A stretch of 54,079 bases of DNA, taken from contig JAHQWL010000025.1 of the NCBI GenBank assembly GCA_029856155.1, positions 1 through 54,079 of the forward strand. Direction: 5' to 3'. Position numbers and translations under genes: made by a program. The notes beneath the pieces were generated by a model, which saw only the letters and a program-made list of their open reading frames with translations, made no database searches and had not been told where the DNA came from. Origin of the DNA: Promethearchaeia archaeon (GTDB lineage Archaea > Asgardarchaeota > Lokiarchaeia > Sigyniarchaeales > SOKP01). Below, one piece after another: positions 36,446-43,961 of this stretch (position 1 is the first letter of the stretch; each line of letters starts with the position of its first letter).

Positions 36446-36627
36446 TACACACTGATTCTTCATCTTTTTTAAAGTACACACTTAAAAAAAATATGATAGA
36501 TTATGATTAGAGCGCTTTTAATCACAATATTCACATTTTTTCATTATGCAGTACACACTTTTGATCCACAACATTTAAATATGATAGTACACACTTTATG
36601 ATCAGAGAATAAAAAATTATACACACT
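36446..36627 (+). repeat. Five direct repeats of TACACACT (consensus AGTACACACTT); probable operator or centromere-like array
   Basis: Copies at 36446, 36475, 36552, 36588 and 36620 (spacings 29, 77, 36, 32), all in the same orientation. Confidence 0.8.
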
Positions 36628-36672
36628 CAAAAAAAATATTAAAAAAAAATAAAAAAATGGTGGAAAAAAAAA

Positions 36673-36756
36673 ATGGAAAATAGTTATGAATCTTATAAGA
36701 ACGTTAAGGCCCATTTTGACGCGAAAAGAGCGGATATTGGTAAAATGTATTTCTAA
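36673..36756 (+). CDS. 27-aa micropeptide (not in the ORF track)
   Basis: MENSYESYKNVKAHFDAKRADIGKMYF; SD-like GGTGG upstream; T-rich tract downstream. Confidence 0.5.
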   Translation: MENSYESYKNVKAHFDAKRADIGKMYF

Positions 36757-36853
36757 ATACAATTTTTTTTATTTTTTTATCACAATAATCAAAAAAATTA
36801 AATTATTATAAACTTAAGATTTGGAAAAGAAGAAATAATTGGAGGTTAAAAAA

Positions 36854-36952
36854 ATGAATAAAACAGAAAGTAAAGAAAAAGGATATATAAATATTAAAGC
36901 CATAAAAGCCAAAATAAACACGAAATCAGGGTATTTTAGACTATTATTTTAA
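36854..36952 (+). CDS. 32-aa micropeptide (not in the ORF track)
   Basis: MNKTESKEKGYINIKAIKAKINTKSGYFRLLF; strong SD GGAGGT 7 nt upstream; ends 11 nt before the bactofilin start. Confidence 0.55.
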   Translation: MNKTESKEKGYINIKAIKAKINTKSGYFRLLF

Positions 36953-36963
36953 ATAATAAGGAG

Positions 36964-37659
36964 GTGGGTAAAAATAATATGAAAATTTCTGGATCAGGAA
37001 CACTTTCCGAGGGAAAAATAAATGATGAGATAAGGATTTCAGGTTCCGCTAAAATAAAGGGAAATTTTGAATGTAATGGGTTTGATTCATCTGGTTCTAT
37101 GAGGGGCGCAGGGAATTTGACAGTTCATGGTGATATCGCAAATTCTGGGTCATTTAGACTTATAGGAAACCTTTATGGAGATGGCAATCTCAAATCGTCT
37201 GGCTCAATGTCAGTTGACGGGGAAGTGTTAATTAAGGGAAAACTTCATAGTTCAGGTTCATTTAGAGCAGGAATGAAGGTTGAAGCTATTGATGGTTTTA
37301 AAAGTTCAGGCTCAGCAAGAGTTCAAGGTGACCTTTTAACTCTAGAAAGTGTAATTATTTCAGGTTCAAGCACAATTTATGGAAATGTTAGTGGAACTGA
37401 TGTGATTATTGGTCGTCGAGGGTTTGGTATCAATATATATAAACATTCTAATAAAGTATCTGGTACCATATTAGCAAGAAATAATATTGAGCTTATGAAA
37501 CTTCTTGTTGATGGGGACGTTAAAGGTCGAGATGTGATAATAGGTAGAAATACAGAGGTTTTGGGAACAGTATACTATGTTGATAGTATTGACATTCATG
37601 ATAAAACCATTTTAGTGAATAAACCAGTTCAAATTAAGGAAGAGGATTTGCATTATTAG
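36964..37659 (+). CDS. Bactofilin / polymer-forming cytoskeletal beta-helix protein (YhbE/YhbF-like)
   Basis: Repeated 'ISGS..I.G', 'SSGS...G.L' beta-helix rungs; C-terminal 'V.GRDVIIG.NT.V...VYY.DSI.IH'. Confidence 0.85.
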   Translation: MGKNNMKISGSGTLSEGKINDEIRISGSAKIKGNFECNGFDSSGSMRGAGNLTVHGDIANSGSFRLIGNLYGDGNLKSSGSMSVDGEVLIKGKLHSSGSFRAGMKVEAIDGFKSSGSARVQGDLLTLESVIISGSSTIYGNVSGTDVIIGRRGFGINIYKHSNKVSGTILARNNIELMKLLVDGDVKGRDVIIGRNTEVLGTVYYVDSIDIHDKTILVNKPVQIKEEDLHY

Positions 37660-37700: not shown

Positions 37701-38624
37701 ATGTCGAATGAAGAAAAATGGAATGAAAAAGAAGAAAGAGAAGAAGAGAGGAGTAAGGTTAGATGGGAGTTAAATGATCTTCGAGATGAGCTTATGTTTG
37801 AGTTAGACGATTTACATGATGATTTAAAGGATGTAATTGACGATTTAAAAGATGAAGCAGAGGATATTAAAGATGATTTAAGGGATGAACTGGAAGATCT
37901 TATGGAAGAACGAGAATCCTTACTTGATGAAGTCGGTAATATAAAAGGAGATTTAGAATATTACGGAGATGATGCAAGAGAGCAAATTGATCATGCAAAA
38001 GAGAAGCTTGAACGATTAAAAGAGAAAATTGAAAAACATGAAGCGAAATTTTCCGAAAAAGTTAGAAAAAAAGTGGAAAAAGCAAAAAAGAAAGCAGCAA
38101 GGATAAATATTTCTGTTGATCCTGATATGAGTGAAGAATGGAGAGGTTGGGCAGAAGGATTAGGTGCTTCAGTATCAGAGTTGGTTCGAAAGTCAATGAA
38201 ATTTGTAAAAAATAATATTGGTGATATCGGAAAATTAGAAAGGTTAGGTAGCAAATTGGAGCTAATGGGAGAAGATATAGAAAAAGCAGTAAAAAATTCT
38301 GGTATACAGGAAATTGGGGAAGAACTTGAAAAAAAGTTTGGAAAAAAGAAAGGTAAACCAAAAATGAGGATGGCAATTAATCTGGAACCTGATATTAAAG
38401 AAAGGATTAAAAAGAGGGTTATTGGATTAGTCAAACTCCACAAAAGTTTACCCCTCGATAAATTTGCTCAAGCATTAGATAAATCAAAGCAAGATGCTGA
38501 GAATATAGTTTATGAGATGGTAGCGGATGGTATTGAGGGTACTTTAGAGGAAGGTGTATTCAAATTCACGAGCACATCAGAAGAAGTTATTTCAAAACTG
38601 AGTGAATTAATTGATAAAATATAA
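37701..38624 (+). CDS. Acidic coiled-coil + ribbon-helix-helix + PCI/winged-helix-like protein
   Basis: D/E/L heptads over about 130 aa; RHH 'RINISVDPDMSEEWRGWAEGLGASVSELVRKSM'; C-terminal 'SLPLDKFAQALDKSKQDAENIVYEMVADGIEGTLE'. Confidence 0.75.
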   Translation: MSNEEKWNEKEEREEERSKVRWELNDLRDELMFELDDLHDDLKDVIDDLKDEAEDIKDDLRDELEDLMEERESLLDEVGNIKGDLEYYGDDAREQIDHAKEKLERLKEKIEKHEAKFSEKVRKKVEKAKKKAARINISVDPDMSEEWRGWAEGLGASVSELVRKSMKFVKNNIGDIGKLERLGSKLELMGEDIEKAVKNSGIQEIGEELEKKFGKKKGKPKMRMAINLEPDIKERIKKRVIGLVKLHKSLPLDKFAQALDKSKQDAENIVYEMVADGIEGTLEEGVFKFTSTSEEVISKLSELIDKI

Positions 38625-38668: not shown

Positions 38669-39931
38669 ATGGCAGAATTTGCAGACGGGCACACGTTTAG
38701 GAGTTATATGTTTTTTTGGTCAGGACAGTTATTTTCATTGTTGGGGTCATTAGTGGTTTTTTTTGTAATATTTGTATGGATTACAGACGTGACTGGAAGT
38801 GCATCAATGTTAGCGTTAGGCAATTTTATCTTTTTGATTCCTATGTTAATTATTACTCCTTTTGCGGGAGTTATATCAGATCGTCATAGTCGAAAGACTA
38901 TTATTTTAATTGTAGATTCATTACAAGCATTTTTTACATTTATTTTAACTTTGATTTTTATATTCAACGCTGCTGAAGTATGGATTGTGCTTATTTTTAT
39001 AGGTATAAGGAGTGTATTTCAATCATTTCATTCACCAGTAGTAGGGGCAATAATGCCTTCTATGGTACCAAAAGATAAGTTAGGTAGAATAAATGGTATT
39101 AATTATTTTTTTACAGGACTTATTCAATTAATAGGACCTGCAGTTGGAGCAACATTATTATTCTTTTTCCCAATACAGATAGTCTTATGGGTCGATGTAA
39201 TTACCTACTTTATTGCCCTCTTCCCACTGTTACTAATTAAAATTCCTAGTGTTCATATTAATTTAGAGGGAGATGAGAGGAACTCGTTTTTCAGAGATAT
39301 GAAGGAAGGATTTGCAATATTAAAATCTATACCAGGACTCTTAAAAATTATGTTAACTGCGATGCTATTAAATATGTTACTTCAACCATTGATTGTTCTG
39401 ATGCCATATTTTATAAAGATTATACACAGTGGAAGTAATTTTACTTTAGCTATATTAGAGATGATTTTACAAGGTGGTATGATTGTAGGAGCAGTAATTC
39501 CTTCAATTAAAAAAAAATGGAATAATTCAATTAGAACCATGTTTATTGGAATTGTGATTATAAATATTGGGTATTTAATGTATGCGATTGCTCCAATTGG
39601 ATTTTATCCCGTGATAGCTTCAGGAGCTTTTGTTGTGGGTTTCATTCTACCAATTGTAAATACAATAGTAATAACAGTTGTACAAAAAACAATCCCCCAG
39701 AATAAAATGGGGAGAGTTTTTTCAATTCTTAATACGCTTTCTATGGTTGCTTCGCCTATAGGAGCAATTTTCTCAGGACCATTAAGTGAAATCTTTGGAG
39801 TGTCTTGGTTGTACTTTTATTGTGCAATGTTAGGAATAATGGTTTCACTCTCAGCCTATTTGTTCACTAATCTTCGACATATAGATTATGATAAAGAAAT
39901 AAATGGTAATAATAAAAACAAAAACGATTGA
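38669..39931 (+). CDS. MFS exporter, DHA3/MefA-like, paralogue 1
   Basis: 'FWSGQLFSLLGS', 'AGVISDRHSRK', 'MVPKDKLGRING', 'MGRVFS'. Confidence 0.93.
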   Translation: MAEFADGHTFRSYMFFWSGQLFSLLGSLVVFFVIFVWITDVTGSASMLALGNFIFLIPMLIITPFAGVISDRHSRKTIILIVDSLQAFFTFILTLIFIFNAAEVWIVLIFIGIRSVFQSFHSPVVGAIMPSMVPKDKLGRINGINYFFTGLIQLIGPAVGATLLFFFPIQIVLWVDVITYFIALFPLLLIKIPSVHINLEGDERNSFFRDMKEGFAILKSIPGLLKIMLTAMLLNMLLQPLIVLMPYFIKIIHSGSNFTLAILEMILQGGMIVGAVIPSIKKKWNNSIRTMFIGIVIINIGYLMYAIAPIGFYPVIASGAFVVGFILPIVNTIVITVVQKTIPQNKMGRVFSILNTLSMVASPIGAIFSGPLSEIFGVSWLYFYCAMLGIMVSLSAYLFTNLRHIDYDKEINGNNKNKND

Positions 39932-39977
39932 ATTAATAAAAATTAAAAAAAAAAATTAGGAAATTAGGAGATAGAAA

Positions 39978-41243
39978 ATGGAAATTATACCTACACAAAA
40001 AACATTCAGAAGTTATCTTTTTTTCTGGTCAGGACAATTGTTTTCACTGTTAGGATCTATGATAGTTCATTTTATACTGATCTGGTGGATACAATTAGAA
40101 ACAGGAAGCCCATTATTTCTCTCATTAGGGCAAACATTTTATATGGTACCTATGTTAATATTCATGCCTATTGCTGGAGTGTTTTCAGATAAGTTAAACC
40201 GAAAAAATCTTATTCTTACTGTGGATTCTTTACAAGCGTTTACTACATTTATTCTTATAATGTTCTTCATATTCGATATTGTAAATATATGGATAATCTT
40301 TCTTTTTATCGGTTTACGGAGTATTTTTCAAGCTTTTCATCAACCAACTGTAGCTGCGATTATTCCAACAATGGTTCCAAGAGAAAAATTAGGAAGAATA
40401 AATGGAATTAATTATTTATTTATAGGTCTAATTCAACTCCTTGGACCAGGGTTCGGTGCGCTATTAATGCAATTTTTTACTCTTAGAGATATTTTATGGA
40501 TAGATATAATTACATTTTTCATTGCCTTTATCCCTTTAATTATAATTAGTATTCCTATAGTAAGAGACAAATCTGAGGTAAAGCAGAAAAATGGGTTCAT
40601 CAAAGACTTTAAAGTAGGATTCATTGTTTATAAATCAATTCCAGGGTTGATAATTCTTTTATTTATGGGAATGTTAGTGAACTTTTTTGTTCAGCCTTTA
40701 GGCACTCTATTACCCTATTTTATTAATACTATTCATGGTGGATTAGAATTTGAGTATGCTTTAGTTCTAATATTTTTGCAGGCAGGTGTAATGGGAGGAG
40801 CAATAATAGCTTCTGTTAAAAAGGAGTGGAAACATAAAATTAATGTAATGTTTATCGGAATTGGGATTATAGGTATTGGATATGCATTTTTAGCAACTGT
40901 TCCTACTGGATTTTTTATTTTAATAGGATTTTTGCTATTAATTGTGGGAATCACTTTACCAATAATAAATACTATATTTCAAATTATTTTACAAACAAAT
41001 GTACCCTCAGATAAACTAGGAAGGGTAACATCTATTGATAGTACTCTATCGACGATAATATCGCCTTTGGGGACAATTATCGCAGGACCAATTACTATTC
41101 TAATTGGGATACACAGCTTATTTCTCTTTTGTGCTATTGCAGTTTTAGTAGTTACACTTATAACATACTTTTTCACTGGAATCCGGCATGTCGATTATAA
41201 TGGAAAAATTTCAATAGAATTGGAATCTAATGAATTAAAATAA
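39978..41243 (+). CDS. MFS exporter, DHA3/MefA-like, paralogue 2
   Basis: Same motifs as paralogue 1. Confidence 0.93.
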   Translation: MEIIPTQKTFRSYLFFWSGQLFSLLGSMIVHFILIWWIQLETGSPLFLSLGQTFYMVPMLIFMPIAGVFSDKLNRKNLILTVDSLQAFTTFILIMFFIFDIVNIWIIFLFIGLRSIFQAFHQPTVAAIIPTMVPREKLGRINGINYLFIGLIQLLGPGFGALLMQFFTLRDILWIDIITFFIAFIPLIIISIPIVRDKSEVKQKNGFIKDFKVGFIVYKSIPGLIILLFMGMLVNFFVQPLGTLLPYFINTIHGGLEFEYALVLIFLQAGVMGGAIIASVKKEWKHKINVMFIGIGIIGIGYAFLATVPTGFFILIGFLLLIVGITLPIINTIFQIILQTNVPSDKLGRVTSIDSTLSTIISPLGTIIAGPITILIGIHSLFLFCAIAVLVVTLITYFFTGIRHVDYNGKISIELESNELK

Positions 41244-41317
41244 CAAATTAAAAAAATATATTTTAAATAAAAATAGAAAAAAGTATTAAAAAAAATTAGG
41301 AAAATAGGGGATATTAA

Positions 41318-42604
41318 ATGGAAGAAATTGCAAATAAAGAAACATTTAAGAGTTATTTATTTTTTTGGTCTGGACAATTATTTTCTTTACTTGGTTCGAT
41401 GGTTGTATTCTTCGTAATAACGTTTTGGATTGCGGATGTTTACAATGATCCAATGATAAGCGCTTTTGCATCATTTTTATATGTACTAATGATGACACTT
41501 TGTATGCCTTTAGCGGGTGTTTTTGCAGATAGGATTAATCGGAAAATGTTGATTTTAACGGTAGATTCGTTACAGGCATTAGTTACATTTGCATTGATAC
41601 TTTTCTTTCAACTCGGGATAACAAATCTTTGGATTATATATTTTTTTATTAGTTTACGTAGTGTTTTTCAAGCGTTCCACTTGCCTACTGTCAATGCGAT
41701 CATTCCAACGATGGTTCCTAAAGATAAACTATCAAGAATTAATGGAGTTAACTTTTTATTTACAGGTGTAGTTCAACTTTTATCACCATTTCTAGGGGCA
41801 ATATTATTAGTATTTCTCTCAGTGTATATGGTTTTATGGATAGACATTATAACATTCTTTATTGCTTTAATACCATTATTGCTGATAACTATACCTTCAG
41901 TTAAACTAATTAATCATAGTGAAAACAATGTTGAAAAGAGTTCCTTTATAAAAGATTTTAGGTTAGGCTTCAAAACATTAAAAATAATTCCGGGATTAGT
42001 TATAATGGTAATCTTATCGATGCTACTTAATTTCTTAATCCAACCTATGAATGCCCTTATGCCTTTATTTATCCTAGATGTTCATGGAGGGGAAGCAGGA
42101 CATTTAGCACTAGCTGAAATGATTTTTACAGGGGGAATGATTACAGGAGCTCTAGTGACCTCGATTAAGAAGAGTTGGGAAAATAAACTTCGAGTGATTT
42201 TTATTAGTATCGTAATGGCGTTGATTGGATACATGATATTTGCTTTAGCACCTATAGGAAACTATTACATTATGGGTTTGGGTGGAGTCATTCTGGGATT
42301 CAATTTACCAATAATTAATTCTCTTTATCAAACGTTTTTACAAACTACAGTACCCTCTGATAAATTGGGTAGAGTAAGCTCAATTGACCAAGCATTATCT
42401 TCAGCAATCTCACCAATAGGATCATTAGCGGCGGGGCCATTAGCATTAATATTAGGTATTCCTACATTGTTTTTCTACTGTGGGTTCCTTGGTGTGATAG
42501 TTACAGTTGGTTTTTGGGGCTTTACAGGTATTAGAAAAATCGATATTGATAGTAAAGGCGCACTCGAAGAAATTCATGGAAAAATAGAAAATATTTCAAT
42601 CTAA
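41318..42604 (+). CDS. MFS exporter, DHA3/MefA-like, paralogue 3
   Basis: Same motifs as paralogue 1. Confidence 0.93.
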   Translation: MEEIANKETFKSYLFFWSGQLFSLLGSMVVFFVITFWIADVYNDPMISAFASFLYVLMMTLCMPLAGVFADRINRKMLILTVDSLQALVTFALILFFQLGITNLWIIYFFISLRSVFQAFHLPTVNAIIPTMVPKDKLSRINGVNFLFTGVVQLLSPFLGAILLVFLSVYMVLWIDIITFFIALIPLLLITIPSVKLINHSENNVEKSSFIKDFRLGFKTLKIIPGLVIMVILSMLLNFLIQPMNALMPLFILDVHGGEAGHLALAEMIFTGGMITGALVTSIKKSWENKLRVIFISIVMALIGYMIFALAPIGNYYIMGLGGVILGFNLPIINSLYQTFLQTTVPSDKLGRVSSIDQALSSAISPIGSLAAGPLALILGIPTLFFYCGFLGVIVTVGFWGFTGIRKIDIDSKGALEEIHGKIENISI

Positions 42605-42641
42605 TATATTTCTTTCTTTTTTTTAAAGATTAATTATAGAT

Positions 42642-43961
42642 GTGGTGAAGAAAATAACTGAAGAATTAGCAAATAACCAAACTTTTAAGAGTTATATCGT
42701 TTTTTGGATGGGACAGTTATTTTCAGTGTTAGGATCATCAGTTTCGCATTTTGCAATTATTTGGTGGATAACTGACACAACAGGGAGTACAATGCTTCTA
42801 TCATTAGCAAGTTTCCTTTATGTCTTACCGATGACAATAGTTGTCGCTTTATCTGGCGTAGTAATTGATAAATGGAATCGAAAGACGATTATTGTGGTAG
42901 TAGATTCTCTCCAAGCATATGTAATGCTTCTGATAATAATAATCTTCAATCTTGGAGTGGCAAATCCAATTTTAATAGTTGCAATAATGAGTTTATTTGG
43001 AATATTTCAAGGGTTTCATATCCCTACAGTAACTGCTATTGTTCCTACGATGGTACCAAGGGAAAAATTAAGTAGAATGAATGGGGTTAATTTTTTCTTT
43101 AGAAGTTTTACTCAAATCATAGGTCCAGTAATAGGTGCTATGTTATTCTCATTTATCCCACTTAAAATCATACTTTGGATTGATCCACTTACATTTATCA
43201 TTGCGTTTATTCCTTTGTTAGTAATTAAAATCCCTAAAATCAAGAGGGAAGTTTCAGCTGTTAAAAAGAATTCATTTCTAGAAGATTTCAAAATTGGATT
43301 CCGTACGTTGAAATCAATTCCAATTGTTTTTATGATGCTTCTAATATCAATGTTCATTAACTTTCTATTTGTTCCACTTAATATCTTAATGCCGTATTTC
43401 ATCAGATATAACCATTCAGGCGATCCTTCAAATTTAGCATTTGTTATAGCTTTTATGAATGGGGGTATGCTTTTAGGTGCATTGTTAACTTCAATAAAGA
43501 AAGAGTGGAAACATGCTCTTTTCATATACTTTGGACTTGAATTCATCTTAATGATGATTGGTGGTATATTTGCCATAACTCCATATCGATTATTTCTAAT
43601 GATGGGTATTGTAGTTGGTATCGCTGGCATAACTATTCCTATCCTTAATACAATTTATTTAACAATTATGCAACTAAAAGTTCCAACAGATAAAATGGGA
43701 AGGCTATCTTCTCTTGATTGGGCGATTTCATCAGCTATAACTCCAATTGCAACTATAATAACAGGGCCTTTATCTGAGATGATCGGAGTGACCAATTTAT
43801 TTCTTTCTTGTTCTATTATTGGAATGATAATAACTCTTATTTTATGGTGGGTTGCGCACATTCGAGTGAATAAAAATAATAATAGGAAAGAACTTGAAGA
43901 AATTGAAATGAGTATTGAAAGGGCATCAAAAGAAAAATGGAAAAAAAGTAAAAAATGGTAA
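42642..43961 (+). CDS. MFS exporter, DHA3/MefA-like, paralogue 4
   Basis: Same motifs as paralogue 1; GTG start. Confidence 0.93.
   Translation: MVKKITEELANNQTFKSYIVFWMGQLFSVLGSSVSHFAIIWWITDTTGSTMLLSLASFLYVLPMTIVVALSGVVIDKWNRKTIIVVVDSLQAYVMLLIIIIFNLGVANPILIVAIMSLFGIFQGFHIPTVTAIVPTMVPREKLSRMNGVNFFFRSFTQIIGPVIGAMLFSFIPLKIILWIDPLTFIIAFIPLLVIKIPKIKREVSAVKKNSFLEDFKIGFRTLKSIPIVFMMLLISMFINFLFVPLNILMPYFIRYNHSGDPSNLAFVIAFMNGGMLLGALLTSIKKEWKHALFIYFGLEFILMMIGGIFAITPYRLFLMMGIVVGIAGITIPILNTIYLTIMQLKVPTDKMGRLSSLDWAISSAITPIATIITGPLSEMIGVTNLFLSCSIIGMIITLILWWVAHIRVNKNNNRKELEEIEMSIERASKEKWKKSKKW

Follow-up and report, generated by a model that had tools for sequence, protein, structure and literature searches.

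Examination of a stretch of 54,079 nucleotides (hereafter, the window) from a Lokiarchaeial (Promethearchaeota) metagenome-assembled genome of 4.1 Mb and 30% GC revealed an intergenic region of 800 nt, with a GC content of about 22%, flanked on one side by a malic-enzyme gene on the minus strand and on the other by a run of co-oriented genes. This run begins with a bactofilin gene (36979..37659, plus strand; Pfam PF04519), followed by a gene encoding a 307-residue acidic-helical/PCI protein, referred to below as the regulator (37701..38624, plus strand; Pfam PCI, 27.6 bits), and by four tandem MFS_1/MFS_3 transporter genes (38669..43961, plus strand), of which the first two were assigned by Pfam and the others by similarity in the ORF list. 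Within the intergenic region lie two micro-ORFs, both on the plus strand and both with an intergenic-like GC content (about 22%), namely, p1 (36673..36756; 27 codons plus stop), assigned to a group termed type A, and p2 (36854..36952; 32 codons plus stop), assigned to type B. Each is preceded by a Shine-Dalgarno (SD) word, GGTGG at 36659..36663, 14 nt 5' of the p1 ATG, and GGAGG at 36841..36845, 13 nt 5' of the p2 ATG. The two SD-led small ORFs and the T-rich tract (36763-36778) between them that a first-pass annotation of the window had described were thus located, in both the sequence and the ORF list, where that annotation had placed them.

To consider whether these ORFs are genes, bactofilin orthologues from genomes of the same genus were taken and their flanks were searched for micro-ORFs. 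Conserved small ORFs were found in the relatives upstream of bactofilin genes, where the first-pass annotation had proposed to search, with p1 recurring at full length and 44-81% identity upstream of bactofilin orthologues and p2 recurring more weakly. Type-A ORFs are exactly 27 codons long in 23 of 24 copies, and type-B products comprise 29-35 residues. The ATG, the frame and the position of the stop codon are retained in all 22 of the other type-A copies, at nucleotide divergences of 2-36%; when neutral evolution was simulated, 3-9% of copies stayed intact at 20-30% divergence. The selection test also proposed earlier gave a pN/pS of 0.29 for type A (p=6e-10; pooled over nine non-overlapping gene pairs) and of 0.53 for type B (p=0.002; pooled over six non-overlapping pairs). 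In the nine type-A pairs, 47 of 120 differences are synonymous, as compared to 16% expected, and third codon positions account for 44% of type-A differences. Of the other frames, +2 and -1 are closed in all type-A copies and +1 is closed in 11 of 23.

The translation signals behave similarly. An SD-like word (GGTGG, GGTGA, GGAGG or GGTAG) is found at the same distance (-14) in each of the 23 type-A copies listed, and TGGAGG precedes p2 in seven of ten aligned loci, with a one-base variant in the remaining three. Across the host genome, SD-like words precede 9% of 2338 long ORFs, against a background of 3%, and peak at -16 to -11, such that the SD words of both micro-ORFs fall within the modal position. 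The 3' end of the 16S rRNA was looked for in the assembly and not found. At the RNA level, the transcript yielded a folding z-score of 0.05 and an RNAalifold consensus energy of -0.71 kcal/mol with no covariation, and no conserved or alternative RNA structure was found in it. Given the selection, the intact frames, the codon-position pattern and the lack of conserved RNA structure, p1 and p2 are very probably real microprotein genes that would be translated, with the support drawn from sequence comparison being strong for p1 and moderate for p2.

Other frames in this region were considered and rejected. A 41-residue overlapping frame (36686-36811) corresponds to the +1 frame that holds stop codons in 11 of 23 copies. 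For a 72-residue antisense frame (36544-36762), which remains open, the base that varies most would fall on codon position 1. A 32-residue 'ORF' (36503-36601) is merely the translation of a near-invariant promoter block, hence its conserved appearance, and serves as a caution for ORF-conservation screens in the region. Finally, an upstream ATG that would add five residues (M-V-x-K-K) and that is the gene-caller start in relatives was rejected as the start of p1, being out of frame in the host genome and in one other (G007) and missing in some copies; all type-A copies share just one start, namely, the ATG of the 27-codon frame. In most relatives, the upstream ATG is in frame and gene callers give 32-residue forms. 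In the host genome, the poly-A run between the two ATGs (36657-36675) has one base more than that of most relatives, and so the upstream ATG is out of frame there, as in G007. The extra base reflects either polymorphism in homopolymer length or a fault in the assembly.

In total, 40 distinct peptides were gathered, 24 of type A and 16 of type B, with one to five copies per genome, often in tandem. A profile built from 16 peptides found exactly three copies in the host genome, namely, p1, p2 and one on another contig (C83). At E<=0.01, the profile matched 20 of 154 genomes of the order, the host genome counted, including 17 of the 53 same-genus genomes that remain when the host genome is left out; two matches outside the genus are weak. 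The family was thus nearly confined to a subset of a single Lokiarchaeial genus. When 1.84 billion representative proteins were searched by profile, 18 matches were obtained, each of 29-56 residues and belonging to the same family, and hence no larger protein contains the sequence. Searches of the peptides against Pfam and NCBIfam gave nothing meaningful, Rfam gave no matches, and look-alikes in the ESM Atlas scored 0.80-0.81, which is chance level. The exact p2 sequence is present in public protein sets, unnamed. By contrast, p1 was not in the public protein collection searched, since it falls below usual gene-caller limits, and has probably never been annotated so far. A literature search returned no paper on the peptide family or on the cassette described below.

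The relation between the two peptides was next considered. In a family alignment of 39 members, p1 and p2 fall into one register over their whole length, with Tyr5 of p1 aligned with Tyr11 of p2 and an invariant Lys two helical turns further on. When a profile of type-B peptides only was run against 100,648 six-frame genomic ORFs, the best non-self matches were p1 (E=1.6e-3) and the C83 copy (E=4e-3). In the reverse direction, a profile of type-A peptides only recovered seven of 15 type-B peptides at E<0.01 and missed the divergent p2 of the host genome. A natural chimera, type A at its head and type B at its tail, also exists. On the strength of these alignments and profiles, p1 and p2 are true paralogues, as the first-pass annotation had thought they might be. 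The caveat given there, that the similarity could be chance, does not hold in light of the type-B profile match; the ORFs themselves, intact in all 22 other type-A copies, are likewise more than chance would give. The pattern on which that annotation had based its proposal, Y-x-N-[VI]-K-A, is literally present in both peptides; it is, however, three residues out of the family register and arises from a K-A-x periodicity and not from homologous columns.

Relatives without types A and B (L009-L013, L015 and L016) have, at the same positions, conserved micro-ORFs of two additional types. One encodes 23-25 residues with a central E-L-I-I-I-K motif; the other encodes 28-32 residues, starts with M-K-I-T and resembles a distant type B. 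The cassette is therefore headed by what can be described as a fast-evolving micro-gene array behind a conserved promoter.

The peptides of the family are basic and rich in Tyr and Phe, with four to seven aromatic residues per peptide and a net charge of +1 for p1 and of +6 for p2. Their N-terminal and central regions are the most conserved, and their C-terminal tails vary, being hydrophobic or aromatic. AlphaFold2 predicted p2 to be a single helix (residues 3-31; pLDDT 75). The observed helical hydrophobic moment is reached by 43-88% of shuffles, and therefore the peptides are not amphipathic in the manner of detergents. No membrane or signal-like segment was found in them.

Upstream of p1, five TACACAC boxes (36446..36626, plus strand; starts at 36446, 36475, 36552, 36588 and 36620) surround a TATA box, TTTAAATA, at 36574-36581, an element found 81-104 nt 5' of the ATG in most type-A copies. 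From archaeal promoter geometry, transcription would be expected to start at about 36600-36610. Three boxes thus lie 5' of the TATA box, one between it and the expected start site, and one in the 5' leader, positions that are kept in relatives. Alignment of 24 copies revealed a near-invariant promoter and leader block (36560..36640, plus strand) that is, at the nucleotide level, more conserved than the ORF itself. Indeed, a promoter block of some 100 nt is nearly invariant between species whose bactofilins share just 57-78% identity. Every type-A copy follows one layout, in which the promoter block, with its three to five TACACAC boxes, gives way to an A-rich leader, the SD word, 27 codons and a U-tract. 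Arrays of at least three TACACAC boxes occur just twice in the 4.1-Mb genome, in both cases before type-A micro-genes. The single heptamer is under-represented in the host genome, with 170 occurrences on both strands as compared to about 415 expected from base composition. A scan for sigma-70 promoters and hairpin terminators gave nothing above shuffles, these models not being applicable to an archaeon.

The tract that follows p1 (T8-A-T7; 36763..36778, plus strand) would serve as the archaeal terminator of the p1 unit, given that U-tracts are described as the termination signal of Archaea (PMC8716108; PMC10450193). Across type-A units, this element takes the form of T7-11, one other base and T6-9, and its T run starts 6-10 nt past the stop codon (within about 12 nt) in all 23 copies listed, as judged by eye. 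In the host genome, T runs of at least eight follow 10% of long ORFs, against a background of 1.1%. Where type-A genes are duplicated in tandem, each duplicate has its own SD word and terminator. Judging from this arrangement, the U-tract of p1 can limit read-through, and the layout allows for peptide output well above that of the downstream product. At internal U-tract terminators of archaeal operons, as described in the same two reports, the first product would likewise exceed that of downstream genes; the differences are that the first unit here is a 27-codon gene and that its terminator is predicted. As for p2, no terminator lies behind it and its stop codon is 26 nt before the bactofilin ATG, such that p2 can be taken as the first cistron of a bactofilin-regulator-MFS operon. 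A moderately conserved A/T block some 45 nt before the p2 ATG, seen across ten loci, may include a second, weak TATA-like element for this operon (36798..36813, plus strand).

Turning to the neighboring genes, the regulator contains a block of 40 residues, beginning R-I-N-I-S-V-D, that is invariant over 14 species. The order of its elements (extended, helix, helix) fits a ribbon-helix-helix (RHH) fold, with the AlphaFold2 monomer reaching a pLDDT of about 40 there, and no sequence match to the block was found in Pfam or the PDB. The C-terminal winged helix is confidently predicted (pLDDT about 80) and shows weak PCI and MarR fold matches; no TPR domain was seen in the protein. In eukaryotes, PCI-like winged helices are typically found in lid and signalosome complexes. 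The N-terminal 130 residues (37701-38100), which are acidic and were modeled by AlphaFold2 as a long helical hairpin, resemble apolipoprotein A-I/A-IV/E repeats, both in Pfam (31 bits, below the cut-off) and in a PDB profile search (E=2e-6), a likeness that is probably compositional.

In most loci, the micro-genes precede the orthologous bactofilin and regulator pair. The gene behind the orthologous bactofilin always encodes the acidic/PCI protein, and paralogous bactofilins lack both that protein and micro-ORFs. One to four MFS genes lie behind the regulator gene in the host genome and in many relatives, and no MFS gene was found directly downstream in three orthologous loci (L010, L012 and L016). 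In four of about 22 loci, and not in the window, an additional gene or ORF separates the micro-genes from the bactofilin gene. In one (L006), this is a nitroreductase-family gene (PF00881); in the other three (L007, L038 and L044), it is an ORF of 243-249 codons, equated with that gene by position and size.

Micro-genes are also found away from the bactofilin gene. The third copy in the host genome (C83:9347-9627; positions 1420-1720 of locus L022) encodes 27 residues and displays the same TATA/TACACAC promoter, a GGAGG word and a U-tract; no bactofilin, regulator or MFS gene lies nearby. Some 170 nt downstream of this copy is an orphan gene of 77 codons, the product of which is 79% identical to that encoded behind an orthologous micro-gene in another genome (G081; L056), such that a role in cis is possible there. 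The orphan was considered as a relative of the regulator, a candidacy that was rejected as no relation was seen and no family was matched. Moreover, three genomes, G001 (L067, C98), G085 (L068, C48) and G084 (L069, C318), hold a second cassette consisting of a box array, a type-A gene, with or without a type-B gene, and a short regulator. These short regulators, of 179-183 residues, start exactly at the invariant 40-residue block and keep the C-terminal winged helix; the second cassettes contain no bactofilin gene, no acidic coil and no MFS genes. In a fourth genome, G014 (L070, C44), boxes come first, then a short regulator and then an MFS gene. Taken over all four loci, the short paralogues span 179-191 residues and each lies behind a TACACAC array, with micro-genes in three and bactofilin in none. 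In another family of the order, two loci (L065, G032:C1, about 3451700-3452100; L061, G025:C66, about 450-700) present ACACAC boxes, a 26-codon ORF, an acidic regulator and then bactofilin, in that order; about 20 nt before the ATG are conserved and the peptides are very different.

From this synteny, the minimal conserved module has three parts: the operator array, one or more micro-ORFs and the gene for the regulator. Across cassettes, the gene for the RHH/PCI-like regulator appears to be the only constant gene partner, with the MFS genes, the acidic coil and the bactofilin gene, a frequent partner, being optional. At the level of whole genomes, the regulator was detected in 17 of 18 peptide-carrying genomes but also in 43 of 54 genomes of the genus; with the regulator in 80% of the genus, such co-occurrence is uninformative. 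The exception, G089 (92% complete), carries a peptide copy, and no regulator was detected in it.

As array and regulator gene are the only partners present throughout across genomes, the peptides can be considered as microproteins that act in trans within the cell and that are put out by a feedback cassette under the control of the regulator. What the sequences show is the anatomy of the genes, their conservation and paralogy, purifying selection on them, their synteny and the uniqueness of the box arrays. Onto these, the proposed circuit would add translation of the peptides, the predicted transcript ends, binding of the RHH/PCI-like protein to the TACACAC boxes and contact between peptide and regulator. 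In such a circuit, the p1 promoter would be controlled through the TACACAC array, to which the regulator presumably binds, and the U-tract would set a high ratio of peptide to operon product. That the invariant, putatively DNA-binding block of the regulator parallels the near-invariant boxes is in line with such binding, and the C83 copy, unlinked yet furnished with its own promoter, boxes, SD word and terminator, counts for action in trans. The sequence comparisons give a function tied to the regulator cassette about an even chance of being correct. The additional step, in which the peptides would also directly modulate the regulator, whether as ligand, co-repressor or anti-repressor, is put forward more tentatively. 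A predicted complex of bactofilin, regulator and p2, run with no controls, scored 0.00 and speaks neither for nor against binding.

Small archaeal proteins acting on larger ones have been described in Methanosarcina mazei, for instance the 23-residue sP26, which acts on glutamine synthetase (10.1101/2020.05.06.080432; PMC11456600). Those proteins are reported to be shorter than 50 residues, to arise from short independent transcripts, to have been missed by annotation and to act in trans on a larger protein, features that the peptides considered here would, in part by prediction, share. They have no sequence relation to the Lokiarchaeial peptides, which are predicted products of tandem paralogues behind a unique operator array beside a regulator gene.

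An alternative reading is that the peptides are signals or antimicrobials, exported without a signal sequence by the neighboring MFS_3-type transporters and sensed by the regulator. The first-pass annotation had similarly linked the peptides to four DHA3-like MFS exporters. Such export would fit with the presence of MFS genes behind the regulator gene in the host genome and many relatives, G014 included, with the adjacency of the peptide and regulator genes, the regulator's presumed operator lying on the promoter of the former, and with the variable hydrophobic or aromatic C-terminal tails and the several peptide types and cassettes per genome. There is also a precedent in PSM-alpha/PmtR/PmtABCD of Staphylococcus aureus, where short, helical peptides without a signal control their own exporter via a repressor, such that peptides, repressor and exporter are joined in one regulatory logic (PMC5080381). 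PSMs are, however, strongly amphipathic and surfactant-like, which the hydrophilic, basic Lokiarchaeial peptides, with hydrophobic moments not above those of shuffles, are not. The PSM system, moreover, relies on an ABC exporter and a GntR regulator, as opposed to the optional MFS proteins and the RHH/PCI-like regulator seen here, where the peptide genes lie inside the cassette. Furthermore, MFS genes are missing downstream in L010, L012 and L016, at the three short-regulator loci with micro-genes and at C83; the loci examined showed no importer, protease or receptor-type TPR domain; and conservation is highest in the N-terminal and central parts of the peptides, not in a C-terminal mature peptide. 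The link to the exporters as originally drawn, faced with peptide loci devoid of MFS genes and peptides devoid of a signal-like segment, is thus not supported, and export in any form is considered unlikely.

Less probable again is that p1 and p2 are leader ORFs acting in cis, with p1 tuning termination at the U-tract, p2 tuning bactofilin translation by coupling and the peptides themselves having no function. Bacterial attenuator leader peptides, such as pheL and trpL, are encoded by short, aromatic-rich ORFs at the head of an operon with a terminator at once behind. The aromatic-rich p1, with its strong U-tract 6-10 nt past the stop codon of type-A genes, resembles these, and the stop codon of p2, as noted, lies close to the bactofilin ATG. 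Internal terminators that grade operon expression are also reported to be common in one archaeon (PMC10450193). Unlike at pheL and trpL, however, no terminator/antiterminator RNA or alternative folds were seen, and the terminator is an archaeal U-tract. In addition, purifying selection extends over the whole peptide and not over Tyr codons alone, and the terminal residues vary (Y, F, N, L or I), so that there is no fixed run of sensing codons. Tandem duplicates that each carry an SD word and a terminator, together with the unlinked C83 copy, further argue against such a role. Of the earlier proposal that the peptides are attenuation leaders, the strong U-tract after p1 therefore stands, whereas the RNA structure, the whole-peptide selection and the C83 copy speak against the remainder.

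Could the peptides instead be structural or assembly partners, such as capping or bundling factors, of bactofilin or of the acidic helical hairpin? In most loci, the micro-genes directly precede the orthologous bactofilin gene, they are not found at the paralogous bactofilin, and basic peptides beside a very acidic helical region would be suited to such pairing. However, the cassettes of three genomes have peptides with neither bactofilin nor the acidic region, and the C83 copy is linked to neither. The absence of the acidic coil from the short regulators encoded behind peptides argues against the coil, for which the first-pass annotation had suggested docking or binding tests, as an essential partner. 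As such, a partnership of this type is improbable.

An extension of the export reading was also considered, whereby the cassette would be an archaeal switch akin to the RRNPP systems, with the peptides being precursors of pheromones exported, where MFS proteins are present, by these and sensed by the array-binding regulator, and the peptide types corresponding to pherotypes. In RRNPP-type cassettes, such as SHP/Rgg, PapR/PlcR and AimP/AimR, the gene for a cytoplasmic regulator has a very short peptide gene as its immediate neighbor. The Lokiarchaeial cassette shares with these a regulator that combines a DNA-binding domain (here putative) with a helical protein-binding domain, an operator (here putative) on the peptide promoter and diversifying peptide types. 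It differs from them in having no TPR receptor domain, no secretion signal and no genes for processing or Opp-type import, and in belonging to an archaeon. Such a switch would seem very improbable.

That the peptides are precursors of RiPPs modified by a nearby enzyme, as the PF00881 gene in L006, the like-sized ORFs in L007, L038 and L044 and the Tyr-rich peptides might suggest, is highly improbable, given that this extra gene is confined to four of about 22 loci and that the loci showed no genes of the YcaO, radical SAM, lanthipeptide or protease kinds. It is equally hard to credit that p1 and p2 are frames open by chance within a conserved regulatory region, for although their GC content is intergenic-like, conservation of their promoter and leader exceeds that of the ORF and the promoter block does yield a spurious 'conserved ORF' at 36503-36601, the excess of synonymous differences, the fixed length and SD distance, the low fraction of copies expected to stay intact neutrally and a third-position peak of variation in this frame only all speak against it.

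The reading in which the peptides are trans-acting microproteins in feedback with the regulator would therefore present a small-protein gene beside a regulator gene, an arrangement with precedents; its novelty lies in the peptide family, in the operator array and RHH/PCI partner that accompany it, and in its occurrence in an archaeon. Hardly any work has dealt with the small proteins of Asgard archaea, and the cassette offers a testable case, in which a promoter with a genome-unique operator array is joined by one or more micro-genes and by a regulator that links a putative DNA-binding block of prokaryotic type to a PCI-like winged helix. Should the peptides be merely abundant small proteins, they would be lineage-specific markers that annotation pipelines should call. 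Should they modulate the regulator, they would form part of a compact archaeal feedback or signaling circuit, open to reconstitution in vitro from four parts. Were the very improbable RRNPP-like switch to prove true, it would be the first peptide-based cell-cell communication in Archaea, and in Asgard archaea at that.
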